DNA of 64,000 nucleotides. Origin: Pristiophorus japonicus (taxonomy: Eukaryota). Of this stretch, positions 29,901 to 58,104 are shown piece by piece. Position 1 is the stretch's first letter. Every line of letters begins with the position of its first letter. Under the pieces are notes generated by a model. It worked only from the letters and a program-made list of their open reading frames with translations, did not search any database and was not told the DNA's origin. Both the position numbers and the translations under genes were made by a program. The stretch spans positions 117,304,001 to 117,368,000 of the forward strand of contig NC_091980.1 of the NCBI RefSeq assembly GCF_044704955.1, read 5' to 3'.

Positions 29901-32553
29901 TTTCCAAGTTTGCAGATGACACTAAACTAGGTGGCGGTGTGAGCTGTGAGGAGGACTCTAAGAGGCTGCAGGATGATTTGGACAGGTTAGGTGAGTGGGC
30001 AAATACATGGCAGATGCAGTATAATGTGGATAAATGTGAGGTTATCCACTTTGGGGGCAAAAACACGAAGGCAGAATATTATCTGAATGGCGGCAGATTA
30101 GGAAAAGGGGAGGTGCAATGAAACCTGGGTGTCATGGTTCATCAGTCATTGAAGGTTGGCATGCAGGTACAGCAGGCGGTGAAGAAGGCAAATGGTATGT
30201 TGGCCTTCATAGCAAGGGGATTTGAGTATAGGAGCAGTGAAGTCTTACTGCAGTTGTACAGGGCCTTGGTGAGGCCCCACCTGGAATATTGTGTTCAGTT
30301 TTGGTCTCCTAATCTGAGGAAGGACGTTCTTGCTATTGAGGGAGTGCAGCGAAGGTTCACCAGACTGATTCCTGGGATGGCGGGACTGATATGTGAGGAA
30401 AAACTGGATCGACTGGGCCTGTATTCACTGGAGTTTAGAAGGATGAGAGGGGATCTCATAGAAACATAGAAAATTCTGACGGGACTGGACAGGTTAGATG
30501 CAGGAAGAATGTTCCCAATGTTGGGGAAGTCCAGAATCAGGGGACATAGTCTTAGGATAAGAGGTAAGCCATTTAGGACTGAGATGAGGAGAAACTTCTT
30601 CACTCAGAGAGTTGTTAACCGATGGAATTCCCTACCGCAGAGAGTTGTTGATGCCAGTTCATTGGATATATTTAAGAGGGAGTTAGATATGGCCCTTGCG
30701 GCTAAAGGGATCAAGGGGTATGGAGAGAAAGCAGGAACGGGGTACTGAAGGAATGATCAGCCATGATCTTATTGAATGGTGGTGCAGGCTCGAAAGGCCG
30801 GATGGCCTAATCCTGGACCTATTTTCTATGTTTCTATGTTTCATGAGGGGGACTTCATTGTCTATCATCGGGAGTGGCTCAGTAACACCACTGCTGGCCG
30901 AGTCCTGAAGGACTGAAGACTGGGCCTGCAGCAGGTGGTTAAAAAACCAACACGAGGGTAAAACCTACTTGACCTTGTCCTCACCTGTCACAGCTGTCAC
31001 ATGCTGCATTGGTAGCAGCATCATTGTGAGATGAAGTCCCGTCTTCACACAGAGGCTGCCATCCATTATGTCATGTGGCACTCCCACCATGCTAACTGGG
31101 CATTAGCAGTAGCAGAATTGTATTCCATCATGATCTGTAACCTCAGGGCCCAGCATATCCCTCACTCTACTATTACCATGAAGCCTGGGGACCAACCCTG
31201 GATCAATGAAGAGTGTAGAAGAGCATGCCAGGAGCAGCACTGGCATACCTGAAAATGAGATGCCAACCTAGGGAAGCTGCAACACAGGTCTACATACATG
31301 TTAAAAAGTGGAAGCAGCATGTTATAGACAAGGCTAAGAGATCTCACAACCAACGGATCAGATTAAAGCTCTATAGTCCTGCCACATCCATTCGTAAATG
31401 GTGGTGGACCATTAAACAATTAACGAGAGGAGGACGCACCATGAATATCCCCATCCTCAATAATGGCGGAGCCCCGCACATGAGTGCAAAAGACAAGACT
31501 GAAGCGTTTTGCAACCATCTTCAGCCATACGTTCCTGAGATTCCCACCATCACAGCAGTCAGTCTTCAGTCAATTTGATTCACTCCACGTGATATCAAGA
31601 AAAGGCTGAGCGCACTGGATACAGCAATGGCTATGGGCCCCGATATCATTCTGGCTGTCATGCTTGTGCTCCAGAATTAGCCGCGCCTCTAACCAAGCTG
31701 TTCCAGTACAGCTACAATACTGACATCTAACCGACAATGTGGAAAACTGCCCAGGTATGTCCTGTCCACAAAAAAAAGGACAAATCTAATCCGGCCAATT
31801 ACCACCCCATCCGTCTACTCTCAATCATCAGCAAGTGGTAATTACTCACCAATAACCTGCTCACTGATGTCCAGTTTGAGCATTACCATCACCGAATCCC
31901 ATCCTGGGGGGGGGTCACCATTGACCAGAAACTTAACTGGACCAGCCACATAAATACTGTGGCAACACGAGCAGGTCAGAGGCTGGGTATCCTGCGGCGA
32001 GTGTTTCACCTCTTGACTCCCCAAAGCCTTTCCACCATCTACAAGGCACAAGTCAGGAATGTGATGGAATACTCTCCACTTGCCTGGATGAGTGCAGCTC
32101 CAACAACACTCAAGAAGCTCGATACCATCCAGGTCTAAGCACCCGCTTGTTTTGCACCTCATCCACCACCTTAAACATCCACTCCCTCCATCACCGGTGT
32201 ACCATGGCTGCAGTGTGTACCATCTACAAAATGCATTGCAGTAACTCGCCATGGCTTCTTCAGCAGCACCTCCCAAACCCGCAACCTCTACCACCTAGAA
32301 GTACAAGGGCAGCAAGCACATGGGATCACCATCACCTCCACATTCTCCTCCAAGTCACACATCATCCTGATTAGTTGCTGGGTCAAAATCTTAGAACTCC
32401 CTCCCTAACAGCTCTATGGGAGTACCATCACCACACGGATGCAGCGGTTCAAGATGGTGACTCACCACCATCTTCTCAAGGGCAATTAGGGATGGGCAAT
32501 TAATTCTGGCCTTGCCAGCGATGCCCACATCCCGTGAACGAATAAAAAAAAAC
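26945..32553 (+). mobile_element. CR1/L2-group LINE (second family) with 5' region, split by a CR1 insertion
   Basis: Endonuclease piece LVILTESY; resumes at 30843 (gggggacttca); same 3' end and poly(A) at about 32550. Confidence 0.82.
27670..30842 (+). mobile_element. CR1 LINE with ORF1 end and complete but broken ORF2
   Basis: ORF1 esterase DGLH motif; EN (LNARSIRNK, ITETWL, GDFN, SDH); RT (GVPQGSVLGP, FADD); (TTTCTATG)n tail. Confidence 0.96.
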
Positions 32554-34259: not shown

Positions 34260-34276
34260 TCACTATAACCTGGTCA

Positions 34277-36480
34277 ACATAGAAACATAGAAACATAGAA
34301 AATAGGTGCAGGAGTAGGCCATTTGGCCCTTCGAGCCTGCACCACCATTCAATATGATCATGGCTGATCATGCAACTTCAGTGCCCCATTCCTGCTTTCT
34401 CCATACCCCTTGATCCCTTTAGCCGTAAGGGTTACATTTAGCTCACTTTTGAATATATCTAACGAATTGGCCTCAACAACTTTCTGTGGTAGAGAATTCC
34501 ACAGGTTCACACTCTCTAAGTGAAGAAGTTTCACCTCATCTCAGTCCCAAATGGCTTACCCCTTATCCTTAGACTGTGACCTCTGTTTCTGGACTTCCCC
34601 AACAACAGGAACATTCTTCCGACATCTAACCTGTCCAATCCCATCAGAATTTTATATGTTTCGAAAAGATCCCCCCTCATTCTTATAAATTCCAGTGAAT
34701 ATAAGCCTAGTCGATCCAATCTTTCTTCATATGTCAGTCCTGCCATCCCGGGAATCAGTCTGGTGAACCTTCGCTGCACTCCCTCAATAGCAAGAATGTC
34801 TTTCCTCAGATTACGAGATCAAAACTGTACACAATATTCAAGGTGTGGCCTCACCAATGCCCTGTACAACTGCAGTAAGATCTCCCTGCTCTTATATTCA
34901 ATTCCTCTCGTTATGAAGGTCAACATACCATTTGCCTTCTTCACCGCCTGCTGTATCTGCATGCCAACTTTCAATGACTGATGTACCATGATACCCAGGT
35001 CTCATTACACCTCCCCTTTTCCTAATCTGTCACCATTCAGATAATATTCTGCCTTCCTGTTTTTGCCACCAAAGTGGATAACCTCACATTTATCCACATT
35101 ATACTGCATCTGCCACGCGTTTGCCCATTCACCTAACCTGTCCAAGTCACCCTGTAGTCTATTAGCATCCTCCTCACAGCTCACACTGCCACCCAGCTTA
35201 GTGTCATCTGCAAACTTGCAGATATTACCTTCAATTCCTTCGTCTAAATCATTAATGTATATTGTAAATAGCTGGGGTCCCAGCACAGAACCTTGCGGTA
35301 CCCCACTAGTCATTGCTTGCCATTCTGAAAAGGACCCGTTTATTCCTACTCTTTGCCTCCTGTCTGCCAACCAGTTCTCTATCCACGTCAATACATTACA
35401 CCCAATACCATGTGCTTTAATTTTGCACACTAATCTCTTGTGTGGGACCTTGTCAAAAGCCTTTTGAAAGTCCAAATACACCACATCCACTCGTTCTCCC
35501 TTGTCTATTCTACTAGTTACATCCTCAAAAAATTCTAGAAGATTTGTCAAGCATGATTTCCATTTCATAAATCCACGCTGTCTTGGACCGATCCTGTCAC
35601 TGCTTTCCCATTGCGCTGCTATTACATCTTCAACAATTGATTCTAACATTTTCCCCACTACCGATGTTAGGCTAACCAGCCTATAATTCCCTGTTTTCTC
35701 TCTCCCTCCTTTTTTAAAAAGTGGAGTTACATTAGCTACCCTCCAATCCATAGGAACTGATCCAGGGTCCATAGTATGTTGGAAAATGACCACCAATGCA
35801 TCCACTATTTCCATGGCCACTTCCTTAAGTACTCTGGGATGCAGACGATCAGGCCCTGGGGATTTATCAGCCTTCAATCCCATCAATTTCCCAAACACAA
35901 TTTCCTGAATAATAAGGATTTCCTTCAGTTCTTCCTTCTCGCTAGACCCTCGGTCCCTTAGTTTTTCCGGAAGGTTATTTGTGTCTTCCTTAGTGAAGAC
36001 AGAACCAAAGTATTTGTTCAATTGGTCTGCCATTTCTTTGTTCCCCATTATAAATTCACCTGATTCTGACTGCAAGGGACCTACATTTGTCTTCACTAAT
36101 CTTTTTCTCTTCGCATGTCTATAGAAGCTTTTGCAGTCAGTTTTTATGTTCGCTGCAAACTTACTCTCATACTCTATTTCCCCCCTCTTAATTAAACCCT
36201 TTGTCCTCCTCCGCTTAATTCTAAGTTTCTCCCAGTCCTCAGGTTTGCTCCTTTTTCTGGCCAATTTATATTTCTCTTCCTGGATTTAATACTATCCCTA
36301 ATTTCCCTTGTTAGCCACGGTTGAGCCACCTTCCCCGTTTTATTTTTAATCCAGACAGGGATGTACGATTGTTGAAGTTCAGCCATGTGATCTTTAAATG
36401 TCTGCCATTGCTTATCCAGCGTCAATCCTTTAAGTATCATTCGCCAGTCTATCCTAGCCAATTCACGTCTCATACCATTG
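34277..36480 (-). mobile_element. CR1 LINE, 5'-truncated
   Basis: (CATAGAAA)n tail; 419-aa RT ORF 35005..36264. Confidence 0.95.
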
Positions 36481-38123: not shown

Positions 38124-41107
38124 TAGGAATGGCTCTTGAGCAAGGAATCAGAGTGTCAGGGCCTAAAGCTGTCCACCTAGACACGACACTGAGGTTAACA
38201 TTGGCTATACATGCCAATGTATACATTCACTAAGTAGCTCATTTAAGGATTGTGTGTTCTCCTGTCGATAAACCATATTTGAAAAGTATTTATTCTCAGG
38301 AGGTGGGCATCGCTGATATTACCCATCCCTAGTTTCCCTGAGAAGATGGTGGTATGGCTTCCGCTTGAAATAGAGGTTTTGATACAACTGACTAGCTTGC
38401 TAGGCCACTTCAGAGGGTGGTTAAAATTCAATCACATTGGTTTGGGGTCACATATAGGCCAGACCGGGTAAGGACGGCAGGTTTCCTTCTCAAATAGACA
38501 TGTGAACCAGTTGGATTTTTTCAACAATCCAAGAGCTTCGTGGTGACTTTTACTGCTCTCAGCTTTTTAATTCCAGATTATTTTTTAAATTGAATTCAAA
38601 TTCTCAAACTGCAATGTTGGGATTTAAACTTGAGGTACAGGAGGCCATTCAAGTGGGGGGAGTAAAAAAGAATGTGATAGCGGTAGGCGCCAGTATAGTC
38701 AGGAGGATAGATACTGTTCTCTGCAGTCGCGACAGGGAGTTCTTGAGGTTGTGTTGCTGGCCGGTGTTAAGGATATCTCGTCGCAGTTGGAGAAGAACTT
38801 GGAGTGGGATGGGCAGGATCAAGCAGTTGTGGTTCTTGAAGAAACCAACGAAATAGGTAAAACTAGGAATGATGTTCTGTTGAAGGAGTTTGAGGATCTA
38901 GAATCCAAATTAAAAAGTAGAACCTCAAATTGGCATAGGGACAAACAGATTAGAGGCTTAAAAGCGTGGCTCAAACAGTGGTGTGGGAGGAAGGGGTTTC
39001 AGTTCATGGGGCACTGGCACTGGGGAAAGAGGGAGCTGTTCTGTTGGGTCAGGCTCCACTTACGCTGGGCAGAGACCAGTATCCTGACAAACCAAATAAC
39101 TAGGGCAGTAGACAGGGCTTTAAACTAATGAAGGAGAGTGGGAGGATTCAGGAAAGAGTAAATTTAAAAGCAGCAAGAAAAATGTCAAGGCTCTACAGCA
39201 GAGTAGAGTTTGGGGTAAAAATATGCAGAGTGGGTCAGGAAGGGACAGAGAGAGCAGCAAAAGTAATAAGGTATCAGTGACTAAGGTGACATCAGGGAAA
39301 AATAGAAATAAGTCAAAACTAAAGGCATTATATCTGAATGCGCAAAGCAATTGAAACAAAATAAATGAATTAATAGTGCAGATGGAAATGAATAGGTTTG
39401 ATCTCATAGCCATTATGGAGAAGTGGTTGCAAAGTGGCTAAGGTTGGAAACTAAATATTCCAGAATACTTAACTTTTAGAAGACAGAAGCAAAATGGAAA
39501 AGGAGGATGAGTAGCCCTGATAATAAAGGATGGGATAAAGATAGTAGAGAGAAGGGATCTTAGCTCCAAAAATCAAGAGCAGAATTAGTTTGGGTGGAGC
39601 TACGAAACAGCAAGTGGCAGAAAACATTGGTGGAAGTTGTTTATAGGCTCCCAAACATTAGTTGTAATGTAGGGCAGAGTATAAATCAGGAAAATAGAGG
39701 TGCGTGTAACAAGGATAATACAGTAATTATGGGGGACTGGGAAAACCAAATTTGCAGTGATATATGGGATGAATTCTTGAAATGTTACGAGATAGTTTTC
39801 TCGATCAGTATGTTGAGAAACCAACTAGGGAACAGTCTGTTTTAGATCTAGTATTGTGCAATGAGAAAGTGTTAATTAATAACCTTGTAGTAAAGGGGCC
39901 TTTAGGGTTAGGGTTAGAAGACTGACCGTAATATGATAGCATTTTATGTTGAGTTTGTAAGTATTTAATTAAATCCGAAACTAGGGTCTTAAGACTAAAC
40001 AAAGAAAACTACATAGGTATGAAGGGCGAGTTGGCTAAGGAAAATTAGGAAACTACATTAAAAGGTATGATGGTAGACAAACAATGGCTAGCATTTAAAG
40101 AATTAATTCATAATTTACAACAAACATACATTCTTTTAAGGCACAGAAACCCCACAAGAAAAGTTATTCAACCGTGGCTAACAAGAGAAGTTAAAGATAT
40201 TATTAGATCAAAGAAAAAAGCTTACAATGTTGCCAAAAAGAATCATAAGCCTGAGCATTGGGAGGATTTTAGAATTCAGCAAAGGAGGACCAAAAAATTG
40301 GGAAAATAGAATGAGAATAAACTAGCAAGAGACATAAAAACAGACAGTAAAAGCTTCTATAGATATGTAAAAAGGAAAAGATTAACAAAAGTAAATGTGA
40401 GATCCTTAAAGGCTGAGACAGGAGAAATTATAATGGGGAATAAGGAAATGTCAGAGAAATTAAACAAGTACTTAGGGCCCGAACTTGGTCAATGCTAAGG
40501 CCTGCCTGTATTGTATGGGATTAATCACATACTGTTAATTATGATATTTAGTCATTTACAGTGTGTCTCTGTCCCATGCCCCGTAGAATGTTGTTGCTAT
40601 AGAGAGAGAGAGAAGTGACCTTGGGACGTACACCAGCTTGTTATGAGATGGTCGGCGCCTCAAGATCTCATGCTTTGTGGACAAGCATCTGGGGCCTTAC
40701 AGATTAGGAGTTGGCCATAAGCCACATGCACCCATGTTTTGTTCAATAGAATGTTTATTTGATAGTATAAAGGTACAGCACTGTCCCATAGCTGTACCTT
40801 GGACCTATTTTCTATGTTTCTATGTTTCTATGTGATTCGCGAGCGGTGCCGGGACCCCCAATGCTCCAGACCAGCCGTCGTTTGTGGAGTTCTCGACGGG
40901 TTGAAGGCCGTGAGCTTTGTTGCATCTTATCATACTTCTCTTTTCTTCGTAAACTGTATTATTAATGTTTCTTTTCTCTCAGTAAACGGTGTTTTATTCT
41001 TTACTTCATTTGTCTTGTCTCTTATTTAACATTCATCCGGATCCCGAACCTGGGTCTATTATTATTGATCCAAAACATTTTTGGTGTCACAAACAGGATC
41101 TGGTAAA

Positions 41108-42637
41108 ATGTTTAAGAGAAAAGACAAGAAGCAGTCTCCTTCTGCGGAAGAGAAGTATAGAATACCAGGGTGGGGCACGAGGGATGAGGGTTTTGGCTCT
41201 CTTGCCAAGGTGCTAGCCTGGTTTGGACCCCGGGATACGCCGTTATTGGAACAGAACAAAGATAAAGCCGTACCCCACGCAGTACTGTCTCTCCTGGAGG
41301 AAGCGGACTTCCCACAGGAGAAAAATAGTCCCCCACAAATGGGATGGATTTTGTTGATAGCCATAAGGGCGATGTGTAAACAACTGAAGGAAAGTGAGGC
41401 AGAAAACCGACAGTTAAAAACAGCTGTTAAGATTTTGGAAAGTCAAAACTCGACCCTGACTGAAGTGGTCCGCACTGCACAAGAACGGGCTGACAAGGTC
41501 AATGAACAATCAGAAACTTTAATATGCTGTCTGGCGACAGTACAAAATAAAAAGAAAGCTAGACGATGGAAATTACAGCTGGATTTGAAATATATCTTTT
41601 GTATTGCACTGATTTGCTGCTGCATGTGGTTTAGACTTGCTCAATTAGATCCCAGTGAGTGTTTAAAAGCCAATGCAAAATCATGTGGGGAAGGTCTACA
41701 AGCTGGAAAAAATGGAGAGGGGGGGAAACGGGAGGAAACTAAAGACGCTCCCCAATACGCTCCGAGCACGAAAGCTAGACCACTTATGACAAATAAGACG
41801 AAACAGCAAGATGGGGATCAGCCGGTAACCACTAGAGGGGTGCGTGACTTCACCACTAGTGAGCTACAAGAAATACTTAACCCCGAAGAGTTAATAAAAA
41901 TGGGGACTATGACTACGGACCACCATATCACAACAGTGCTAAGGAATGTCCAGGGCACATGTTCGCTATGGGACATGGTTACTATCAGGGTCCGGCAAAA
42001 ATATCCCTCTGCCGTTGATTGGGAAGGGGAGGTAAAACCTTGGAATACTATGGCGGAGGGTGCGATACAGTTGCGCAACATGGCAACACAGGGAGGATTA
42101 TATCACCAACCATATGGGGGGCCGGATCAGGAGCTCTTTACGGCAGGAATGCGGAGCAGGCTGATGAAGAGTGGCCCTCCTATGATGAGGGGTGCACTAC
42201 TCGCATTATTGGGACCAGCCCAAGGGCAGCGGTTGTGGCACACCTACCTATTGTTAGGGCAGTTAGAGGATGCAGAAGATAGTGTGTGAGAGTTGAGAAC
42301 GGCTAATGTAGAAGGGGATCGGGACCAACTACAAGGTTCGACCTCTGGGAACGGTACAGAGTCAGGAAAGACAAAAAAAAGAATTATGCGGAGGGACATG
42401 TTTGCGACTTTACTGAAGGCAGGGGTCCCCAAGGAAAAAATTGATGGAATCCCAACAGGAGCGATGTATTCTATGTGGAAGCAACACTGCGTCCCGGGAA
42501 CAGAGAAGGGTGAAAGGAGGAAGGTAAGGGAGACTAAGTCGGATAGCGATAAGTCTGCGGATGCGGAGAAACCACCTCCTGCTAGCCTATACCCCAACAT
42601 AGAAGAGCTGTGGAAGGCTAGTAATCCCCTCGACTAG
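41108..42637 (+). pseudogene. gag: ERV gag (ERV-L/Fv1-like), one internal TGA at 42287
   Basis: PWNTMAEGAIQLRNMA...PDQELFTAGMRSRLMKSGP resembles ERV-L-type capsid; the TGA is probably a CGA->TGA decay. Confidence 0.85.
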
Positions 42638-45600
42638 GGGTGTGGCTGGGACCCGGGAGTACCCCCCGTTAGAACCACATCAACCCAAGCTCCCGGGGAT
42701 CTGAGGCCACACATTCCGATTACGATACATTGGCGGCGGGAGGAACATACAAAGAGATGTTGCTTTACTAGACACAGGGGCAGAAGTTACTATTATCCAT
42801 GGAAATCCTAGGAAACACACAGGCACCCGTATGATGATTAATGGGTTCGGAGGGGCAGAAACGCCCCGCTGTCCGAACAACTATTAGAATGGCGTTGGGA
42901 AATGGGCCTCCGCGCTGGGTAACGGTCTTAATATCGGCAGTAAATGAACATATTATTGGGATGGACCTTTTAAAGGGAACCACACACAACACCTCATTCA
43001 GGCGATTCTCATTCGGGATACTGGCGATCACTGTGATTGCAGGGGAAGCAAAGTGGGAACCAGTGGTATTACCACGGCCCACGCGTATAGTGACTATGAA
43101 ACAGTACCGAATACCTGGGGGACACAAAGAAATAGGGGAAACCATACAAGGGCTCTTGGAGGCGGGTATCATTAGACATGCGGTGTCCCCCTACAATAGT
43201 CCTGTTTGGCCTGTGCAGAAACCCGACAAAAGTTGGAGAATGACTGTGGACTACCGACAACTGAACAAATTTGCCCCTCCCCTGGCAACTGCTGTTCCAG
43301 ATGTAGTAACTATAACAGAGCGGCTGTCTGAAGAAGGTGCGGAGTGGTATGCGGTAATCGACCTGGCCAATGCCTTTTTCTTCATTCCAATAGTGGAAGA
43401 ATCCCAGGACCAGTTTACATTCACTTGGGAAGGGAGGCAATACACGTTTAAACGCCTACCTCAGGGTTACCTACATAGTCCTACCCTATGCCACGGATTG
43501 GTGGCCCGGGACCTGGACATGTACACGTTGGCTCCTAATGTCTCACTGGCACACTACATTGATGATGTACTAATAAGGGGTCCTACCGAGGCAGTGGTGT
43601 CAGAAGCCCTAGCTACTTTAGTCCAACACATGCGAGACAGGAGCTGGGAGATAAATCCGAAGAAGATGCAGGGCCCTAGCCAGACTGTCCAGTTTCTGGG
43701 GATCCAATGGTCTCGGGGGGAGCGCATCATACCCGAGCCCGTGAAGAATAAAATTCAAGAATTGGCCACCCCATGAATAAAACTGAGACACAACGGTTCG
43801 TGGGACTATTGGGTTACTGGAGGAGACACATACCTCACCTCACGATGTTATTAAAACCGTTGTATGCCGTAACCCGAAGAAAGGCCCACTTCGAGCCAAA
43901 GATGCAGCCAAAGAAGCCGTAGCTCAAGCTTTACCCCTAGCCCCGCGAGTGCCTGGACAGCCTTTTGAGCTACAGGTATCCGTTACCAATGATACTGCAG
44001 TATGGAGTTTGTGGCAGGTTCAACATGGCATTCGTACACCGTTAGGGTCTGGTCTAGAAAATTGACAGATGCTGCTACTCATTACACTCCATTTGAGAAA
44101 CAGTTATTAGCATGTTATTGGGTTCTAACAGAAACAGAAGGACAGACAGGGGACAACAAAGTCAGTTTAAGACCAGACCTACCCATATTATCCTGGGTTC
44201 TCTCAGAAAATGAGACACAAAAGATCGGGCGAGCGCAGCAAATCTCCATAGTGCGCTGGAAATGATATATCGCAGACAGAGCAAGTAAAGGAAAAGAAGG
44301 AATCACCCGACTACATGAGCATGTGGCTGAATACCCACAAACAGCTGAGAGTGAACTTGCACAGTCATCTGTCAGTTTAACCCAAGAGTCACCGATCTCC
44401 TGGGGTGTGTCTTTGGAACAGTTAACACTGAAGAACGTAGCCATTCCTGGTTCACAGATGGCTCAGCAGTCTGGTGAAATGGCCTTCGGCGATGGAGAGC
44501 CGCTGCCTTCAATCCAAAAACCCAGACAATTGTGCATGATGAGGGCATGGGAGGCTCCAGCCAGCTCGCAGAACTAGCAGCTGTAGTCCTTCGTTAGAAG
44601 AGGAACAGCAACAAGTACACATATATACTGACTCATGGGCAGTAGCCAATGGCATGGCGAGCTGGATGCGAAACTGGCATGAATATAACTGGCAAATAAC
44701 AGGGAAAGACTTGTGGGGAAAGCACCTATGGTCCAAAGCCCAGAAGATGAAAATAACTGTATATCATGTGGACGCTCACATGAAAAACACTTCAAAGACC
44801 TCTGAATATAATAACATCGTTGATAATATAGCCCGGGTACGGGCTGTCAAAGAGGCGGAAGAGGAAGAATATTGCATAGGCAAGTGGGCCCACCACAAAT
44901 CTGGACATTTGGGCATTCAGGATACGATACAATCGGCACAAAATAGGGGGTTACATTTGACTACAGACGGTGTGAAACAGACCATAAACACTTGTGAAAT
45001 TTGTCAAAAGGTGAAGCATTTTCCCCTACAATGACGCCCATGTTAAGAGAGGGACTCAACCAATACAAATATGGCAAGTTGATTATGTAGGACCTTTACC
45101 ATTGCAACAATGGTTCCAATATTTGCTCACTGCTGTTGATACCTATTCTGGACTTTTGATAGCTTATCCAGTGACTAAAGTGAATCAACAAAGTACGATT
45201 AAAGGACTGGAGAATTTAATCACATACTACGGGGAGCCAGCAGAAGTACAGTCCGATAATGGGTCGCACTTCACAGGTCAAACAGTGCAACAGTGGGCGG
45301 TAGACAACGGGATCTTTTGGAAGTTTCACATACCTTACTATCCACAAGCTGCAGGGTTAATGGAATGCATGAATGAACTACTTAAGCAACAGATTAAAAT
45401 ATTAACTCCCACTAACACATTGCAAGGGTAATTAAAGGTCTTACCACAAGTAGTACGCAATCTGAATCACCAACCATTACGGGGGGGAGCGCCCATAAGC
45501 CACATGTTAGGCAAAGTTAGTTTCCCTACTATTGAAAAAGAAAATCAGACTCAGGACACAGTTTGTGAAGACAGAAAAGTGTGGGTGCAGTAGCCCAGAA

Positions 45601-45680
45601 ACCCTTACAAGTAGGGAAAATCTTAGCGAAAGGAGAAGGAAACACTTATGGGGTGCTTCTGACTGGTCAAGATATTCCTC
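42638..45680 (+). pseudogene. pol: ERV pro-pol (protease, RT, RNase H, integrase), disrupted
   Basis: LLDTGAE; NSPVWPVQKPDKSWRMTVDYR, IDLANAFF, LPQGYLHSP, HYIDD; WFTDGS, SSQLAEL, YTDSW; HHCC, WQVDY, SDNGSHF. Confidence 0.93.
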
Positions 45681-45761
45681 TCTGTGTTGACAAGGGTAAA
45701 TTGTCTAAACGATGCTGAAATTAATATAATTATGCTTCCTCCCACAGAAATTCTGCCAAAA

Positions 45762-46103
45762 ATGGTGACTTACCAACTCGTGCTGGCAAGTCTCTGTGTC
45801 TTGTTATCTGTGACTGTGCTCCTTCCATCCTCAAACACAGCATGGGATGGCCGTACAGGGTGGCGGTTAGTTAACACTGATCGTACGCAAGACAATCAAG
45901 GGTGGATTGTATTGGTGGGACATCTTTTACGGATGGTCCCCAAAACATCCGCCGCTTTGAAGCTATTAATACATCCTATCGTTGTTTTACTTATCGCGTT
46001 ATTACTGCTTGTATGTATTCTTAGGTGTAGATTGCGGGCGTTGCTTGCGCAGACTCAACGTGTAACTGATGCATTACACCTTCAACTTGATTATATTACT
46101 TAG
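45762..46103 (+). CDS. 113-aa mini-env remnant (signal peptide fused to TM anchor and tail)
   Basis: Env position; acceptor cttcctcccacag at 45747; Kozak AAAATGG; two hydrophobic segments. Confidence 0.6.
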   Translation: MVTYQLVLASLCVLLSVTVLLPSSNTAWDGRTGWRLVNTDRTQDNQGWIVLVGHLLRMVPKTSAALKLLIHPIVVLLIALLLLVCILRCRLRALLAQTQRVTDALHLQLDYIT

Positions 46104-47799
46104 AATGTCTAAATATCAAGGGTGGATTGTATTGTATGGGGTTAATCACATATTGTTAATTTACAGTGTGTCTCTGTCCCATGCCCCATAGAATGTTGTT
46201 GCTATAGAGAGAGAGAGAAGCGACTTTGGGACGCACACCATCTTGTTATGAGATGGTCGGCGCCTCAAGATCTCATGCTTTGTGGACAAGCATCTGGGGC
46301 CTTACAGATTAGAAGTTGGCCATAAGCCACATGCATCCATGTTTTGTTCAATAGTATGTTTATTTGATAGTATAAAGGTACAGCATTGTCCCATAGCTCT
46401 TTGAACTTCACCTTGGACCGTGATTCGCGAGCGGTGCTGGGACCCTCAATGCTCCAGACCAGTCGTCGCTTGTGGAGTTCCCGACGGGCGGAAGGCCGTG
46501 AGCGTTATTGCATCTTATCATACTTCTCTTTTCTTCGTAAACTGTATTATTAATGTTTCTTTTCTCTCAGTAAATGGTGTTTTATTCTTTACTTCATTTG
46601 TCTTGTCTCTTATTTAACATTCATCCGGATCCATAACCTGGGTCTATTATTATTGATCCAAAACACTGCCCAAGTGCCACACAAAGGACTGCTGAGAGAC
46701 CAAGCGGTATTTTGCCAGGAAGATTCCTCTAAAAGATCTACCATTACCGCCCGGCGGCAAAAAAACAACTAATGCCGTGAATCTGGCCAGCAGCGGGCGG
46801 GTGCTCCCAATCTCGGCAGGAAATGCAATCCTCGCCAAAGTGCCGCCAAGGATCGAGTCGGGCCCAGGGAGGGGGGAACAGATAAAAATAAAAATTTAGA
46901 CAAAAAAAAACACTGGAAAACCTTCAGGCAACATCATCCACCCAAATCACTGAAAATAAAAGAAGTTCACTAACCTTTTTTTGCAGGTCTTCTTACTTAC
47001 CGTTGGGGTTAGACCTGCCTTCACGCAGTGGTCCTTCCCCCTGCTGCCGCCGACTCCCACCCGGAGGACTCTGCCAGCTCGGTGGCCGGGAGGACACTTA
47101 CGCACCTTGCATGCTAGCGGCCATCAGCTGGCGGTTCCCAGCGGTCCTCCCCTCCTGCCGGCGGGAGGCCTAGAGGAAACTGGCACCGAGGGGAGACCGT
47201 CCAAAAAACACGGCAGCAGCCGACGCAGTGGGCGGTAAGGGCACCAAGTTCAGGCCCTTTGTGTCTGTCTTCATGGAAGAAGAGGCAAAATACTTCCTGG
47301 AAATATTGGGGAGCCAAGGGTCGAGCGAAAACAAGGACCTAACAGGAATTAGTATCAGTAAAAAAAAAAAGTACTGGAGAAATTAATGGGACTGAAAGCC
47401 AATAAATCCCCTGGACCTGATGGCCTATATCCTAGGGTTTTGAAACAGGTAGCTATAGAGATAATGAATGCATTGGTTGTCAGCTTCCAAACATCCATAA
47501 GGTTGGAATTTCCGGTCCTTTGCGCTCCGAGTTTGCCCCGGAGTGGTGTAAAAGGTAGCGTTCAGGTTTCCTGCGGTCCTTTGCAATCCTCCGGTCCATG
47601 TTTGCGGCGGCACTCAGTAGCACCGTCAGGAAGAGCTGTACCGGGTGTGCAACTCCTCTGGTTGCAAAACCGGCAGTACTTTGGCCTTTTGCCAGATCCT
47701 ACTGCCTGGAGGTATGCCCACAAAGACTGCCTGGGAAATCTGTGCAGTCCAGCCATGCCAGTGGCAGTGAGGAAGGTAAAGTACTCCGAAGTGAAAACA

Positions 47800-50700
47800 G
47801 CTGGAAATGATCAGGAAACACCAAGACTCGTTTGACGAGAACAAACAGGAGATCCAGGAGCTAATCTGTATGGGTAGAGCTGCGGAACACCAAAGGGCAG
47901 AAAATGCTAGTGGGAGTTGTGTATAGACTACCAAACAGTAGTAGTGAGGTTGGGGGATGGCATCAAACAAAAAATTAGGGATGCGTGCAATAAAAGTACA
48001 GCAGTTATCCTGGGTGACTTTAATCTATATAGATTGGTCTAACCAAACTGGTAGCAATACGATGGAGGAGGATTTCCTGAAGTGTATAAGGGATGGTTAC
48101 CATATGTCGAAGAACCAATGAGAGGACTGGCCATCCTAGACTGGGTAAGGTGTAATGAGAGAGGATTAATTAGCAATCTTGTTGTGCGAAGCCTCTTGGG
48201 GAAGAGTGACCATAAAATGGTAGAATTCTTCATTAAGATGGAGAGTGACACAGTTAATTCAGAGACTAGGGTCCTGAACTTAAAGAAAAGTAACTTCGAT
48301 GATATGAGACGTGAATTGGCTAGGATAGACTGGTGAATGATACTTAAAGGTTTGACGGTGGATAGGCAATGGCAGACATTTAAGGATCACATGGATGAAC
48401 TTCAACAATTGTACATCCCTATCTGGAGTAAAAGAAAATGGGGAAGGTGGCTCAACCATGGCTAACAAGGGAAATAGGGATAGTATTAAATCCAAGGAAG
48501 AGGCATATAAATTGGCCAGAAAAAGCAGCAAACCTGATGACTGAGAGAAATTTAGAATTCAGCAGAGGAGGACAAAGGGTTTAATTAGGAGGGGGAAAAT
48601 AGAGTATGAGAGTAAGCTTGCAGGGAACATAAAAAGTGACTTCAAAACTTCTATAGATATGTGACGAGAAAAAGATTAGTGAAGACAAATGTAGGTCCCT
48701 TGCAGTCAGAAGAAGGTGAATTTATAATGGGGAACAAAGAAATGGCAGACCAATTGAACAAATACTTTGGTTCTGTCTTCACTAAGGAAGACACAAATAA
48801 CCTTCTGGAAATACTAGGGGACCGGGAGTCTAGCGAGAAGGCGGAACTGAAAGAAATCCATATTAGTCAGGAAATTGTATTAGGGAAATTGATGGGATTG
48901 AAGGCCAATAAATCCCCAGGATCTGATAGACTGCATCCCAGAGTACTTAAGGAAGTGGCCCTAGAAATAGTGGATACATTGGTGGTTATTTTCTAACATT
49001 CTATAGACTCTGGATCAGTTCTAATTGATTGGAGAGTAGCTAATGTAACCCCACTTTTTAAAAAAGGAGGGAGAAAGAAAAGAGGGAATTATAGAATAAT
49101 TAGCCTGCCATCAGTAGTGGGGAAAATGTTGGAATCAATTATTAAAGATGTAATAGCAGCGCATTTGGAAAGCACTGACAGGATCGGTCCAAGTCAGCAT
49201 GGATTTATGAAAGGGAAATCATACTTGACAAATCTTCTAAAGTTTTTTGAGGATGTAACTAGTAGAGTGGACAAGGGAGAACCAGTGGATGTGGTTTATT
49301 TGGTCTTTCAAAAGGCTTTTGACAAGGTCCCACACAAGAGATTAGTGTGCAAAATTAAAGCACGTGGTATTGGGGGTAATGTATTGTCGTAGATAGAGAA
49401 CTGGTTGGCAGACAGGAAGCAAAGAGTAGGAATAAACGGGTCCTTTTCAGAATGGCAGGAAGTGACTAGTGGGGTACTGCAAGGTTCAGTGCTGGGACCC
49501 CAGCTATTTACAATATACATTAATGATTTAGACGAAGGAATTGAATGTAATATCTCCAAGTTTGCAGATGGCACTAAGCTGGGTGGCAATGTGAGCTGTG
49601 AGGAGGGTGCTAAGAGGCTGCAGGGTGACTTGGACAGGTTAGGTGAATGGGCAAATGCATGGCAGATGCAGTTTGATGTGGATAAATGTGAGGTTATCCA
49701 CTTTGGTGGCAAAAACAGGAAGGCAGAATATTATCTGAATGGTGACAGATTAGGAAAAGGGGAGGTGCAACGAGACCTGGGTGTCATGGTACATCAGTTA
49801 TTGAAAGTTGGCATGTAGGTACAGCAAGCGGTGAAGAAGGCAAATGGCATGTTGGCCTTCATTTCAAGAGGATTTGAGTATAGGAGCAGGGAGGTCTTAC
49901 TGCAGTTGTACAGGATCTTGGTGAGGCCACACCTTGAATATTGTGTACAGTTTTGGTCTCCTAATCTGAGGAAGGACATTCTTGCTATTGAAGGAGTGCA
50001 ACGAAGGTTCACCAGACTGCTTCCCGGGATGGCAGGACTGACACATGAAGAAAGACTGGATCGGCTAGACTTATATTCACAGGAATTTCGAAGAATGAGA
50101 GGGGACCTCATAGAAACATATAAAATTCTGACGCGATTGGACATGTTAGATGCAGGAAGAATGTTCCCGATGTTGGGGAAGTCCAGAACCAGGAGTCATA
50201 GTCTAAGGATAAGGGGTAAGGCATTTCGAACCAAAATGAGGAGAAACTTCTTCACTCAGAGAATTGTGAAACTGTGGAATTCTCTACCACAGAAAGTTGT
50301 TGAGGCCAGTTCATTAGATATATTCAAAAGGGAGTTAGATGTGGCCCTTACAGCTAAAGGGATCAAGGGGTATGGAGAGAAAGCAGGAATGGGGTACTAA
50401 AGTTGTATGATCAACCATGATCATATTGAATGGTGGTGCAGGCTCGAAGGGCCAATGGCCTACTCCTGCACCTATTTTCTATGTTTCTATGTTTCTAATA
50501 AGCCGCAAGCGCAAGGCATTTCTGAATTTAAAATAGCAACCCAACTCGAGAGCAAGAAAGTAGCTCTGCAGACAGCTGAAGGCCGAGGCCCAACAAAAAA
50601 CCCATGACCTAAAAAACAGATGGTGGATAGAGAAAGCACAGGAGATCCAGCAGTTAGCCGACAACCACAACGTGCATGGATTCTTCAGCGCAGTCAAGAC

Positions 50701-51357: not shown

Positions 51358-52825
51358 CCTCCTGACTGGGATCTCGCTAGACCGCAGCAGCTTCAGATAG
51401 GTCTGCATCTTTTTTCTCAGAAAGGAGAAACCGGGATTTCTGAGTCAACACTTTAGCAGGAGGCTTTATTTAGAGAAGTAGTTCTTTCCTGACCACGTGG
51501 GGTGTCACTTCCTCAAAAAGGTCAAGGGCGTTCATCAGTCCCACAAGGCTTGAACGCTTCCCTTATGCCTTGGTGATCGAAACTGAACACAGTCATCAGG
51601 GTGTGATCTAAGCAAGGCAGTTTTCGTATGACATCCTGCAACTGATATAAAACTAACGTTGCAATATAATCTGTGATGTATGTAGCACCCAAATCACTGA
51701 CTCCACACGGTCTGGTGCTGTAATAACTGCTGTGACCTTAGTCCTTTATTGTGTAACTCCAGAGTCCCTCTCAGGTGTGGTGGGCAGCCTTTTATACTCT
51801 GTCTTGCAGGTACTTTCAGGTCTCCCACCACAGCGCCCTCTGTGGCGCACCATTGTACTTATACATTTAATGTACCCAGACAATACATAACATCTCACTC
51901 CCCCCCCAGTTCCAAAGCCATTGTCGGTAACCTCGGCCTTTTCGTCCTGGTTGGTTTGTGAGTGTGAGTCCATGACCATCCACTTCCCTCTTCCCCCACC
52001 CCCCCCCATGTAGAGATTATGCTTGCGATCCGGTGCAAGCATGTGATATTTGCAGTCCTTACATGGGTGATGAAGTCACGAGTATAACCTCCAACAGAAA
52101 GCAGGTATACATAGACAGTACATTTGTATGGTACATATAATATGTGGTACAGATGTTATGTCAAAAGGTTGCAGGTGCACTGAACAGTTATTTAATCCCA
52201 GCTCCACTGGGTGAGGTACGGTGGCAGTATACTGCCCCTTTTCGCCTGAGGTAATGGGCTAGGCTGAGACAGGGTATCGCAACTAGTGCGTTGCCTCTGT
52301 TCTCAGTAGTCGCCTTAGCGGCTTATCTGCAGCCGCTGAACCATTGCAAGAATCACATAACATCAAAAATTGCATTGGCCCCTTAGGCATGTTAGTCACG
52401 GATCCATTAACCCTTTTACTTGTACCTCGTGGTATTAACTCTTCTCGTAAATCATTCATATCCATCATTTTAAACACAGTAACCATTCAGCATCAAAATA
52501 TCGACTCGTATCCTAAATCACTTCATCATACAAATCACTTTACACATTTAGACTCGCTCTTGCCTTACAAAAGTCTTTTTGTAGGGACCACCAACGGTGT
52601 AAGGCCCTTTTAAGGCTCCCGGGTGCATTTCCCTTTTAAGATGCCATCTTGTGGTTCCAATGAGGCTTCCCTTGGGCGCCGACATTTTAGTTGTACTGCT
52701 TGCTTTAGTTCTTTGTAGCCACGAGGCTCGCCACCATCTTGAGCTCGCTGGCCTGACGTATTGCTGCAGTTAAGAAGGAATAGAGGGGATAAAGAAGAGA
52801 AAAAAAAAGAAAAACGGCCACGAAC

Positions 52826-53043
52826 ATGACTGATACTGCAGCCGTATGCTGCAGCCGCCGGAACGGCTCCTCCTGCCGTCACCGCTCAAACCCAGGCTCC
52901 CAGCGAGAAGAGGAATGTGATGAATGGCTCCCTGAAGCAGATCAAGGGCACGGGCGCCTCGGGCTCATCCAAACCCCCTCGACGGATCCCCAGGGGAAAA
53001 TGGGAAAGAAGGTGAAGAAGCCAGCAGCCAAGAAATCTCCAGA
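52826..53043 (+). pseudogene. Captured, internally deleted linker histone H1 coding fragment
   Basis: MTDTAA..TAPPAVTAQTQAPS / KRNVMNGSLKQIKGTGASGSSK / GKMGKKVKKPAAKKSP; KGTGASGS is the H1 globular-domain signature. Confidence 0.85.
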
Positions 53044-53594
53044 GTTATATTTCTTGATATCACTGTCACTCAGAATCAGCGCTCCGTTTTTTAATTCTTC
53101 CCATCTGCCCAGTAGGGAGTATTTCAGACTTCTTGTAATTTACGTACTCACGTTTTAGGGGCCTAGCACCGCACATAACAGTTCGTTCTTGTTCTGTTCG
53201 CCATACTGGTAGAGCCGGCTGAGGATGGTGTGGAGCAGCCGCCCTTCGCACTCGCCCTCGCTGGGCCCGCTCTTCGCCCATCGCACAACACACCGCGCCG
53301 GCACCGGCAACTTCCTGGCGTCACAGGCGCACGTCCTACAGCTGGCTGCCTCCGTAGCCTCCTCTGCCGCTGTAGCCCCAGTAACTGCCGCCTCTCCTGC
53401 GGTCGCCGTAGCTGCCACCACTGCCACCTGACTTTTTCTGCGCACGGCACCCCCTCCCCGGTTTGCCGGCCGTCGATGGGTTTGCCATTCAACGCCTGCT
53501 CTTCCAGGGTCTGCTCGTCTGTGTGTGGCTTCTTCCTCCTCCAGCTCGGTCGGCGGTGCTCTTTGGAAACCCGGGGAACGGCGGTCTGTGGAGG

Positions 53595-54817
53595 AATGAA
53601 GTCTTCCCAGCTCCCACGGACCTTCTCCATCCACCTCCTGCCAAGAAGCGTCGGCCCATCGCCTGCAATGACCCACAAAGGTAAACCGTGCATCTCGCCC
53701 CCGTGAGATACCTGCACATCTGCTCTGCCGAGGACAGGAATCAGTTTCTTGGTGTAGGTACGCAGCTTTGCTGTGACCGGGACCAGCTTGGGTCATGCAG
53801 CTGGATTAATCCACAGTTTATCAAAAGTTCTCTGACTCATCAACGACAGACCCGATCCAGTGTCCACTTCCATACTCACTGGGACTCCATTAATCTTGAC
53901 CTCCATAATCACTGGAGCTGAATCGTCGGTGCACATATATAGTCCAAGCACCTCATCTTCTTCTGCCTGCTCCTCGCTGGATGGTGGATCATCTGCCATC
54001 TCCTCAGCCGCACGGTGAGTCAGGTTTCTTTTGCACATACGCTGAAGGTGGCCTTTCGTGTGGCAGGTATTGCACGTATACTCCGCAAGCCTGCACCGGT
54101 AAGCCCATGGCTTCCTCCACAGCGCCAGCATGGTGCTACTCGATTAGCCCCCCTCGGCAGACTCTGAGTTCCAAGACCCCGAGGTCCATGCTCTCTGTCC
54201 TGGGCAGAGCCACGTTCTGCAGCTTTGTCCGTGGTGGGCGCTATCCTGTGAATAGTACCTGCCGGGTTCGAGACCGTGTAGATCATCCGCTTGGTGCTGC
54301 AAGTCGAGGTCATAAATGCCCGGCTGATGGTGATGGCTTGCTTCAGGGTGACTGTAGGTTCATGGGATAGCAGCTTGTGAAGAAGCCCCTCATGGCCAAT
54401 CCCCATAACAAAGACGTCTCGCAAAGCCTCGTCAAGGTGTGTGTCAAAATCACACGGCGCCGCGAGTCTCCTGAGGTCCGCAGCATATTTGGTGACATCC
54501 TGGCCCTCAGGTCTGCAGTGGTGGTATAATTTGTGCTTGGCCGTGAGGATGCTCTCCTTCGGTTTCAGTTGGTCACGAATGAGTGCGATCAGCTCCTCAC
54601 ATGACTTGTCCCTCGCGCTCGCGGGTGCCAGCAAATCCCTGAAGAAACAGTAAACCTCATCACCACAACTGGAAAGTAATATCGCCTTACGCTTCGCTCT
54701 CATTGCATCCGTGTCCACCGTCAGGTCGTTTGCTGTGAAGTAGTACTCAAGCCTTTCCGTAAAGGCCTCCCAATCATTGCCCACCGTAAAATCCTTTAGC
54801 AAGCCCAGAGTAGCCAT
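53595..54817 (-). pseudogene. Gypsy gag and aspartic protease (frameshifted)
   Basis: DWEAFTERLEYYF, CWRCGG and CHTKGH knuckles, EVDTGSG, PTLLGRRW. Confidence 0.9.
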
Positions 54818-55364
54818 GGTTGCATGAAGCTCGTCCGTGTCCTTGTCACCAATGTGATGTATGTAGCACTCAAATCACTGACTCCACACGGTCTGGTGTT
54901 GTAGTAACTGCTGTGACCTTAGTCCTTTATTGTGTAACTCCAGAGTCTCTCTCAGGTGTGGTGGGCAGCCTTTTATACTCTGTCTTGCAGGTACTTTCAG
55001 GTCTCCCACCACAGCGCCCTCTGTGGAGCACCATTGTACTTATACATTTAATGTACCTGGACAATACATAACATAATCTAAAACCATTGTTGCATGTATT
55101 TATCAGATTGTTCTTACATAGCAACTGTTCAAATTCCCTTGTAATAATTGATCTCATTATTCGAGTATAAATTGATGTGTGACTGGTGGATGTGTAGTTG
55201 TCCAGTTTAGATTTCCCCCTTCCTTGTATATAGTTACTATGTTGGCTTGATTCCAATTGTTGAGGCAAAATCATGGGCACATCATCCACATTTTCCAGAT
55301 TCCATTGCCAATAGCCAAGGCTCCAGTCTTCGCCAATTAGGAATAATCAGCCCTTAGAAACCAC

Positions 55365-57476
55365 ATAGATGAACTACAACAATTGTACATTCCTGTCTGG
55401 CGTAAAAATAAAAAAGGGAAGGTGGCTCAACCGTGGCTATCAAGGGAAATCAGGGATAGTATTAAAGCCAAGGAAGTGGCATACAAATTGGCCAGAAATA
55501 GCAGCGAACCCGGGGACTGGGAAAAATTTAGAACTCAACAGAGGAGGACAAAGGGTTTGATTAGGGCAGGGAAAATGGAGTACGAGAAGAAGCTTGCAGG
55601 GAACATTAAGACGGATTGCAAAAGTTTCTATAGATATGTAAAGAGAAAAAGGTTAGTAAAGACAAACGTAGGTCCCCTGCAGTCAGAATCAGGGGAAGTC
55701 ATAACGGGGAACAAAGAAATGGCGGACCAATTGAACAAGTACTTTGGTTCGGTATTCACTAAGGAGGACACAAACAACCTTCCGGATATAAAAGGGGTCG
55801 GAGGGTCTAGTAAGGAGGAGGAACTGAGGGAAATCCTTATTAATCAGGAAATTGTGTTGGGGAAATTGATGGGATTGAAGGCCGATAAATCCCCAGGGCC
55901 TGATGGACTGCATCCCAGAGTACTTAAGGAGGTGGCCTTGGAAATAGCGGATGCATTGACAGTCATTTTCCAACATTCCATTGATTCTGAATCAGTTCCT
56001 ATGGAGTGGAGGGTAGCCAATGTAACCCCACTTTTTAAAATAGGAGGGAGAGAGATAACAGGGAATTATAGACCGGTCAGCCTGACATCGGTAGTGGGTA
56101 AAATGATGGAATCAATTATTAAGGCTGTCATAGCAGTGCATTTGGAAAGAGGTGACATGATAGGTCCAAGTCAGCATGGATTTGTGAAAGGGAAATCATG
56201 CTTGACAAATCTTCTGGAATTTTTTCAGGATGTTTCCAGTAGAGTGGACAAGGGAGAACCAGTTGATGTGGTATATTTAGACTTTCAGAAGGCTTTCGAC
56301 AAGGTCCCACACAAGAGATTAATGTGCAAAGTTAAAGCACATGGGATTGGGGGTAGTGTGCTGACATGGATTGAGAACTGGTTGGCAGACAGGAAGCAAA
56401 GAGTAGGAGTAAATGGGGACTTTTCAGAATGGCAGGCAGTGACTAGTAGGGTACCGCAAGGTTCTGTGCTGGGGCCCCAGCTGTTTACACTGTACATTAA
56501 TGATTTAGACGAGGGGATTAAATGTAGTATCTCCAAATTTGCGGATGACACTAAGTTGGGTGGCAGTTTGAGCTGCGAGGAGGATGCTATGAGGCTGCAG
56601 AGCGACTTGGATAGGTTAGGTGAGTGGGCAAATGCATGGCAGATGAAGTATAATGTGGATAAATGTGTGGTTATCCACTTTGGTGGTAAAAACAGAGAGA
56701 CAGACTATTATCTGAATGGTGACAGATTAGGAAAAGGGGAGGTGCAAAGAGACCTGGGTGTCATGGTACATCAGTCATTGAAGGTTGGCATGCAGGTACA
56801 GCAGGCAGTTAAGAAAGCAAATGGCATGTTGGCCTTCATAGCGAGGGGATTTGAGTACAGGGGCAGGGAGGTGTTGCTACAGTTGTACAGGGCCTTGGTG
56901 AGGCCACACCTGGAGTATTGTGTACAGTTTTGGTCTCCTAACCTGAGGAAGGACATTCTTGCTATTGAGGGAGTGCAGTGAAGGTTCACCAGACTGATTC
57001 CCGGGATGGTGGGACTGACCTATCAAGAAAGACTGGATCAAATGGGCTTGTATTCACTGGAGTTCAGAAGAATGAGAGGGGACCTCATAGAAACGTTTAA
57101 AATTCTGACGGGGTTAGACAGGTTAGATGCAGGAAGAATGTTCCCAATGTTGGGAAGTCCAGAACCAGGGGACACAGTCTAAGGATAAGGGGTAAGCCAT
57201 TTAGGACCGAGATGAGGAGGAATTTCTTCACCCAGAGAGTGGTGAACCTGTGGAATTCTCTACTACAGAAAGTTGTTGAGGCCAATTCACTAAATATATT
57301 CAAAAAGGAGTTAGATGAAGTCCTTACTACTAGAGGGATCAAGGGGTATGGCGAGAAAGCAGGAATGGGGTACTGAAGTTGCATGTTCAGCCATGAACTC
57401 ATTGAATGGTGGTGCAGGCTCGAAGGGCCGAATGGCCTACTCCTGCACCTATTTTCTATGTTTCTATGTTTCTATG
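55365..57476 (+). mobile_element. CR1 LINE, 5'-truncated, well preserved
   Basis: 532-aa open RT ORF 55383..56981; (TTTCTATG)n tail. Confidence 0.96.
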
Positions 57477-57780
57477 AGGCTGGAGTCAGAGGAACAAAGA
57501 GCTTGGGGGAAGTCAACCTTGTAGTGCTGAAGGACGTTACAGAGATAAGGAGAGGGGAGGCCAGAATTAATGGTGATAATAATGTGCATATAATCAAGAC
57601 GGTTTATAAAAAGGCTGTTGTGCCCCACACAATTTTCAAAAATGTGTTATGATTATACCAACAAGTGTTAGAATCAAAATAAGTGTTGGTTCCTGAGGTT
57701 TACACAGTACAAATCATCCCCTCCCTATCGCGAACATTCAAACCAGAAAAAGGTGGCCAGCACTGTCGAACAATCCATAG

Positions 57781-57990
57781 ATAGGCAAGGATATTAACCC
57801 CAGCCAATGGACAGGCATAGATAGCAACCCTAGCCAATAGGCAGGTAAGGAAACCAACCCCAGCCAATAGGGAGGTAAGGATAACAACCCCAGCCAATAG
57901 GCAGATAAGGATAACAACCCCAGCCAATAGGGAGGTAAGGAAACCAACCCCAACCAATAGGGAGGTGGGGAAAGTAACCCCAGCCATATA
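57781..57990 (+). repeat. 30-bp minisatellite, 7 units, CCAAT-containing
   Basis: Unit about GGAGGTAAGGATAACAACCCCAGCCAATAG in exact 30-bp register. Confidence 0.92.
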
Positions 57991-58104
57991 AGCAGTCAGG
58001 AGGCTAATGTGGTCCGGCTATTGAAAGGGACTAAGACACCCACCAGGCAGGTGACCTGCTTGCCCCCACAGCTTCCCACTTGGGTGTTAAACTTCACCCT
58101 TAAG

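Follow-up and report, generated by a model that had tools for sequence, protein, structure and literature searches.

We found that a family of apparently non-autonomous LTR retrotransposons in the shark Pristiophorus japonicus carries a fragment of a linker-histone H1 gene in antisense orientation. We favor, with about even confidence, the reading that this fragment is a passenger acquired once through plus-strand priming on a co-packaged H1 mRNA and neutral since then. One copy of the element lies in the window, the 64,000-nucleotide stretch of DNA analyzed here (Table 1). A first-pass annotation, made from the sequence alone, had described an H1 fragment that begins at its ATG, contains a 13-nt duplication, reads as H1 peptides after that duplication and a one-base frameshift, has lost most of the globular domain in frame, and lies antisense inside an LTR element. 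All of this held up: the ATG is at 52826 on the plus strand, the duplication spans 52833-52858, the peptides read as quoted, and a 177-nt in-frame deletion removes host H1 codons 26-84, about 49 of the 71 globular-domain residues. The fragment is antisense to the element, whose gag, zinc-knuckle and protease coding runs along the minus strand. The start was placed correctly; at the far end, the H1 match stops at 53042 and not at 53043. Alignment to host histone genes, which the annotation had proposed as a check, is significant: against host H1 locus L094 the fragment matches at 87% over 52846-52915 (E = 3e-20) and at 93% over 52908-53042 (E = 6e-54). The local alignment score to H1 is 220, compared with a maximum of 34 in 500 doublet shuffles, and the Pfam Linker_histone model scores the remaining piece at E = 0.0007 and 20.2 bits, below the 22.4 cut-off.

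Table 1. Features of the window copy and of the H1 fragment within it (window coordinates)
Feature	Position	Strand	Remarks
5′ LTR, 221 nt, TG..CA	54853-55073	-	7 differences from 3′ LTR (3.2%)
3′ LTR, 221 nt	51672-51892	-	7 differences from 5′ LTR (3.2%)
5-bp target-site duplication	left 51667-51671, right 55074-55078
gag, zinc knuckles and aspartic protease, broken in window copy	53545-54817	-	Asp_protease_2 E 3e-5; zf-CCHC_2 E 0.014
CIRBP-like coding remnant	53348-53524	-	sense to element; fused to gag-protease end
Spliced FSAF1 (C1orf131) mRNA piece	53050-53349	-	sense; exon 3/exon 4 join kept at ~53161/53162
7-nt filler, FSAF1/H1 junction	53043-53049		absent from both donors at that point
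Histone H1 fragment	52826-53042	+	antisense to LTR element; donor subtype is the cluster on G000:C2056
13-nt tandem duplication	52833-52858	+	hallmark of subfamily B
Join of 177-nt in-frame H1 deletion	52908-52915	+	short AAG-repeat microhomology; common to all counted H1-bearing copies
Element 3′ non-coding region	51893-52825	-	ends in purine tract before 3′ LTR

The host element is 3.4 kb long and has gag-protease as its only coding content. It shows the direct LTRs with TG..CA ends, target duplication, gag and aspartic protease of Ty3/Gypsy elements and does not have their own reverse transcriptase (RT), RNase H and integrase, in that order; none of the three was found in the 3.4 kb. Relatives of its gag (34-37% identity) carry protease, RT, RNase H and integrase families, the named relatives in protein searches are sawshark records, and 5-bp target duplications flank most of 80 full-length copies. 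The element thus appears to be a non-autonomous derivative of a Ty3/Gypsy-type LTR retrotransposon, its class being assigned through gag relatives only, and RT and integrase would be supplied in trans by a partner. From the double zinc knuckle and 5-bp duplication, we presume that it may belong to the Mag-like clade. At L161 (G000:C6 near 3.88 Mb), a truncated FSAF1-bearing copy adjoins an integrase-like frame of 452 codons that belongs to a related LTR element, a possible lead to the autonomous partner.

Several further candidate features of the element were considered. Rfam gave no match anywhere in it, and a putative histone stem-loop at ~52600 was rejected, since the sequence there matched none of 30 linker-histone loci. 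Comparison of gag-protease between subfamilies gave no support for purifying selection, with ratios of 0.19-0.43 compared with 0.54 for private variants, and the tests on three subfamily pairs were non-significant (p = 0.07, 0.35 and 0.13). The idea that the antisense H1 frame is kept as a hydrophobic extension of the element protein fails because this frame lies behind the CIRBP stop in subfamily A. In only 8 of 80 full-length copies does the frame that begins with gag stay open for more than 380 codons, which counts against it as well; this reading-frame figure, like the microhomology and 8-mer figures below, comes from an analysis excluding L259 and L163. On the minus strand at 52630-52810, the element 3′ region, possibly another captured piece, has a pyrimidine tract ending in CAG and three motifs that resemble YY1 sites.

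Other repeats surround this copy. CR1-type LINEs, 71-91% alike, fill much of the window (164-791, 4495-6938, 27989-30848, 34276-36478, 47863-50497 and 55351-57479). A separate retrovirus-like element occupies 40507-46665 on the plus strand. Its LTR-like repeats at 40507-41077 and 46128-46665 are 89% alike by BLAST and 95-96% alike where the alignment has no gaps. Pfam identifies broken gag-like, RT, RNase H and integrase frames in it, and a short hydrophobic frame spans 45663-46103. At 57747-58016, an array of about nine repeats of 30 nt, all containing a CCAAT box, precedes a TATA-like motif and looks like the promoter repeat of another element.

The H1 fragment recurs throughout the genome. 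The annotation had proposed a search for further copies. Such a search located the H1 deletion join at 94 places, 46 on the plus and 48 on the minus strand, and its reversed control gave none, so the fragment is not unique to the window copy. Eighteen of these places share variant letters, 13 of the 14 examined among them share one flank, and they are a single subfamily-B insertion that segmental duplication spread, together with its flank, to about 18 places, most of which lie on small contigs (L011, L012, L016, L018-L021, L023-L025, L028-L030). One locus carries the join twice. Corrected for both effects, about 76 independent H1-bearing insertions remain; the 2182 first-look candidates are not a count of H1 copies. 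At least 140 H1-free sister copies with CIRBP (control, 0) provide the empty site, and at least 234 junction places were therefore counted in the family, 94 with H1 and at least 140 empty.

Among 109 loci examined, 77 bear H1, all of them in antisense (77/77), with 53 in subfamily A and 24 in subfamily B, to which the window copy belongs. Subfamily A retains 11 nt of the H1 5′ UTR, an altered start codon and a longer tail; its junction with an ATG gave no exact match, and all 22 one-mismatch matches (22/22) have CTG. Since A and B each retain H1 letters lost in the other, they derive from a single common capture. A copy with undeleted H1 was sought with one exact gapped pattern, which gave no match. 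L161 and L162, in which FSAF1 is present and H1 absent, are secondary deletions or truncations. LTR divergence is 4.9% in A (n = 38), 5.8% in B (n = 17, one copy 17%) and 4.8% in H1-free copies (n = 25), the 109 loci having been reduced by L286, where no module matched, and by 28 loci without one full LTR. In no dated copy is it below 0.9%. By this measure, all subfamilies are of the same age.

To place the donor, we compared the element fragments with the linker-histone genes of the host, which has at least 150 such loci (150 scored among 291 candidates). Seventy distinct element H1 fragments have a mean identity of 0.885-0.899 to 13 genes of the C2056 cluster (2.4-6.8 Mb) and of 0.76-0.85 to 25 others, and they form one clade (support 0.83) that is sister to all 13 C2056 genes (13/13) among the 38 host genes. 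These results show a single capture from the C2056 H1 subtype. The host donor is intronless, so the H1 piece itself does not reveal whether the template was RNA or DNA. None of three isolated linker-histone matches inspected lies in this LTR element (0/3). One of them, L301:3236-3507 (G000:C1 near 46.587 Mb), is a 272-nt H1 piece that keeps an intact globular domain and is 94% identical to the C2056 subtype; it stands outside the LTR element and in opposite orientation to the CR1-type LINE end at its join.

The H1 fragment described in the annotation is real but is not the sole insert, since the window copy also holds CIRBP and FSAF1 pieces. The CIRBP-like coding piece, in sense, is joined to the gag-protease end upstream of H1 in the element sense. 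Copy L137 keeps the entire CIRBP RNA-binding domain, of which later subfamilies lost 69 nt and then 21 and 120 nt. The host CIRBP donors on C7 are intronless: five intronless CIRBP-like genes (L133-L136, L140) lie at G000:C7:219.41-219.77 Mb, and two intron-bearing paralogue exons lie on C18. In some copies (L003, L015, L017, L159, L161, L165), the captured glycine-arginine tail is expanded as an 18-nt tandem repeat of up to ~1 kb. Public shark proteins named RNA-binding protein 3-like (P0001, P0002, P0004) are element-CIRBP chimeras, P0001 being 99% to an element copy; several public "RBM3-like" shark proteins are thus not host genes, a warning for annotation.

In subfamily B, a sense piece of FSAF1 (C1orf131; PF15375), presumably a ribosome-assembly factor, stands between CIRBP and H1. 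It matches five host exons at C7:13.078-13.086 Mb, where the host introns have GT/AG ends. In L002, L017 and L145, exon meets exon exactly at three joins, one of which is left in the window copy; the fourth is an internal deletion. Exact joins in spliced FSAF1 show that the family copies host mRNA, that is, RNA templates. One end of the piece matches the element imperfectly, and the other carries the 7-nt filler.

A second antisense insert occurs in one H1-free subfamily, where a 49-nt insert in the CIRBP piece is found at 11 loci (L260-L267, L105, L106, L109; e.g., L267:3665-3713), flanked by a ~12-nt duplication. The whole insert aligns, in reverse orientation, with the metazoan SRP RNA model (positions 39-88), a weak match (E = 0.22, 10.3 bits against a cut-off of 70); searched with its flanks, it gave no SRP match. 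We regard it as probable antisense 7SL.

The junctions of the H1 insert indicate how it may have been acquired. In subfamily A, the same 9-nt element motif borders the insert on both sides and is single at the empty site; full-length A copies keep the entry junction in 37 of 38 cases and the exit junction in 36 of 38. At the start of the piece, the antisense strand of the H1 tail codons shares eight of the nine motif letters (the chance of at least 8 nt of microhomology is 0.000235, from 200,000 random junctions). The far H1 end matches the element upstream of the motif at five of six letters, with the H1 letter retained at the mismatch. CIRBP and FSAF1 are in sense and replace element sequence, whereas H1 is antisense and adds sequence with a 9-nt duplication. 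Of 2678 8-mers, element and H1 have 66 in common in sense and 69 in antisense, so sequence alone leaves the orientation unforced. The annotation had attributed the capture to an RT template switch. RT-based capture does operate in the family, given the FSAF1 joins and the microhomologies at the H1 ends, but the usual switch onto an mRNA yields a sense insert, and the antisense H1 therefore needs a plus-strand-primed or repair-type event.

We propose that an element-sense plus-strand DNA end annealed to H1 mRNA, copied it toward its 5′ end and then jumped back a few bases early; the template would have been RNA, the switch would have taken place inside the element particle, and the plus strand would have been the jumper. 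Nested junctions give the order sense CIRBP, deletions, antisense H1 and, in subfamily B, sense FSAF1. The FSAF1 piece arrived after H1, replacing the CIRBP tail and trimming the primed end of the H1 piece. The 7SL-like insert of the sister subfamily, for which the Rfam match is weak, has the same footprint as H1. We modestly prefer the particle route, since the two antisense inserts arose near each other in sister lineages and since, tRNAs aside, no host RNA is more abundant in retroviral particles than 7SL (PMC4997597).

A short duplication with microhomology at the primed end is also the footprint of a LINE- or repair-driven insertion into a chromosomal copy. In that case, a nick in a genomic element copy would have served LINE RT or break repair as the primer on H1 mRNA or DNA, and that copy would have become a master with a neutral passenger. 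The 9-nt duplication resembles a target-site duplication, CR1-type LINEs are plentiful in the window, L301 holds the same H1 subtype antisense to a CR1 end and ends in the same tail repeats, and twin priming is credited with opposite orientation in LINE-1 chimeras, where that orientation marks priming from the other strand (PMC13174262). However, poly(A), stem-loop and LINE sequence are all absent at the insert, which ends inside the tail codons, with the stem-loop of the host genes far downstream, and so does not have the 3′ end of a LINE pseudogene. Furthermore, two antisense inserts within ~300 nt of each other in sister lineages would imply two chance strikes on masters in a 5.9-Gb genome, and the 5/6 match at the far end is as expected of a return jump. 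We judge this route unlikely, if still the more credible of the two alternative routes.

Less probable again is a minus-strand template switch onto antisense H1 RNA, such as read-through from an element copy lying reversed in an H1 cluster. It requires no new chemistry, could use the 8-nt microhomology for the return jump and is compatible with the enzyme step behind both sense captures. Against it, the first jump would have had at most 2 nt of homology, and at positions where the donor differs from the element the product has the H1 letter. The cluster at C2056:2.4-6.8 Mb contains no H1-junction place (0/94; H1-junction copies only), and the antisense 7SL-like piece is left unexplained.

H1 contributes to transposon silencing, and the annotation had expected element transcripts to carry antisense H1 RNA, as they would from a layout that is antisense at 77/77 loci. 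Its further suggestion of a function against this chromatin repressor is unsupported, given neutral decay, no excess in copy number or youth, no escape in the donor genes and housekeeping co-captures. Under that suggestion, antisense small RNAs from the copies would lower one H1 subtype and loosen repression, like the Drosophila telomeric captures, a scenario we consider improbable. Consistent with it are the fixed orientation, the survival of the H1 piece in two subfamilies while CIRBP eroded, an identity of ~89-90% to the donor, within the Drosophila targeting range (PMC13534243), and the match of 90 of 190 28-mers of the window fragment to a C2056 H1 at up to two mismatches. Of 54 full-length copies (L259 excluded), 51 still share an identical stretch of 26 nt or longer with some host H1, so small RNAs, if made, could pair with H1.

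Nevertheless, H1-bearing copies are fewer (94 vs. at least 140) and no younger than H1-free ones, and their H1 part decays no slower than the rest of the element: rare non-CpG variants number 128/7425 in the H1 part and 1707/87590 elsewhere in subfamily A (p = 0.19), and 65/2657 and 817/35228 in subfamily B (p = 0.64), although such post-insertion variants are weakly informative on selection acting on few master copies. The donor genes change no faster in the captured part, in a small sample with eight loci lacking a usable frame: between C2056 and C9, change is 0.05-0.07 and 0.13-0.14 in the two captured parts and 0.10-0.11 in the uncaptured part, and within C2056 it is 0.009 and 0.027 vs. 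0.031. The host has its many linker-histone loci, and the larger C9 cluster is matched by only 39 of the 190 28-mers. A CpG decay of 8-19% points to methylation of the copies, and the other cargo is CIRBP, which is a cold-shock RNA-binding protein, FSAF1 and probably 7SL. Together with a histone that has hundreds of copies, this cargo reads as a sample of abundant RNA, and the H1 fragment is probably a passenger that brings the element no benefit, not a means of acting on the host. We see little prospect that the two routes, sense replacement and antisense insertion, combined with ~90 germline copies to form a small-RNA source that lowered one linker-histone subtype during the burst. If true, a retrotransposon of a vertebrate would be turning host sequence against chromatin repression.

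In the model of LTR-mediated retroposition published by Tan et al. (2016, PMC5131818), RT begins on element RNA, shifts to an mRNA packaged alongside it and then moves back. That model predicts sense inserts that replace element sequence without duplication, which CIRBP and FSAF1 fit and H1 does not. Like animal LTR-mediated retrocopies, maize Bs1 and mouse "Super" (PMC5131818), the shark elements hold partial host mRNAs between LTRs with internal genes replaced, and they resemble the retrocopies of that study in microsimilarity or filler joins, several parent genes per element and repeat retroposition. Element sequence is present on both sides, secondary amplification has occurred, and switch points show microsimilarity or filler (8 nt and 5/6 for H1); intron loss is seen for FSAF1, the H1 and CIRBP donors being intronless. 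The H1 piece differs from those retrocopies in being antisense and in lengthening the element, with a 9-nt duplication, where they replace part of it. The words "opposite," "inverted," "orientation" and "histone" are absent from the main text of PMC5131818. Maize Bs1 has one to five copies (PMC5131818), in contrast to the at least 234 junction places of the shark family, with resolvable stages.

Drosophila TART and its relatives, with fragments of nxf2, piwi and aub, likewise hold a 140-235-nt host fragment of ~90% identity in many copies (PMC13534243). Those, however, are LINE-type elements in which eight of nine captures are of piRNA-pathway genes and piRNAs are demonstrated; the capture families are the more numerous there, whereas shark H1-bearing copies are fewer than H1-free ones (PMC13534243). 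In Dothideomycete fungi, a histone H3 piece captured by a hAT transposon was amplified into many dead copies (PMC6710886), as here, although that case involves a DNA transposon, a core histone and fungal RIP, with no reverse transcription. LINE-1 antisense chimeras and retroviral patch repair, including that with 7SL (PMC13174262, PMC4997597), also copy host RNA in via microhomology; their partner is a LINE end or an exogenous retrovirus, whereas here an insert within an LTR element was amplified. Published cases already include LTR elements that captured several genes (PMC5131818) and a transposon that captured a histone (PMC6710886); the scale, the readable capture order and the two footprints are new. 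In the open-access literature searched, no report of the shark family or of H1 capture by an LTR element was found.

Most known cases of gene capture by LTR elements are retrocopies present once or a few times. In the shark family, the stages are preserved in hundreds of copies from a single burst, with three protein-coding captures and probably 7SL alongside empty sites, so that junction anatomy and capture order are directly readable in a vertebrate. The contrast between sense replacement and antisense addition with duplication is a testable signature of a second, plus-strand route, one that would let any retroelement gain antisense guides against host genes.
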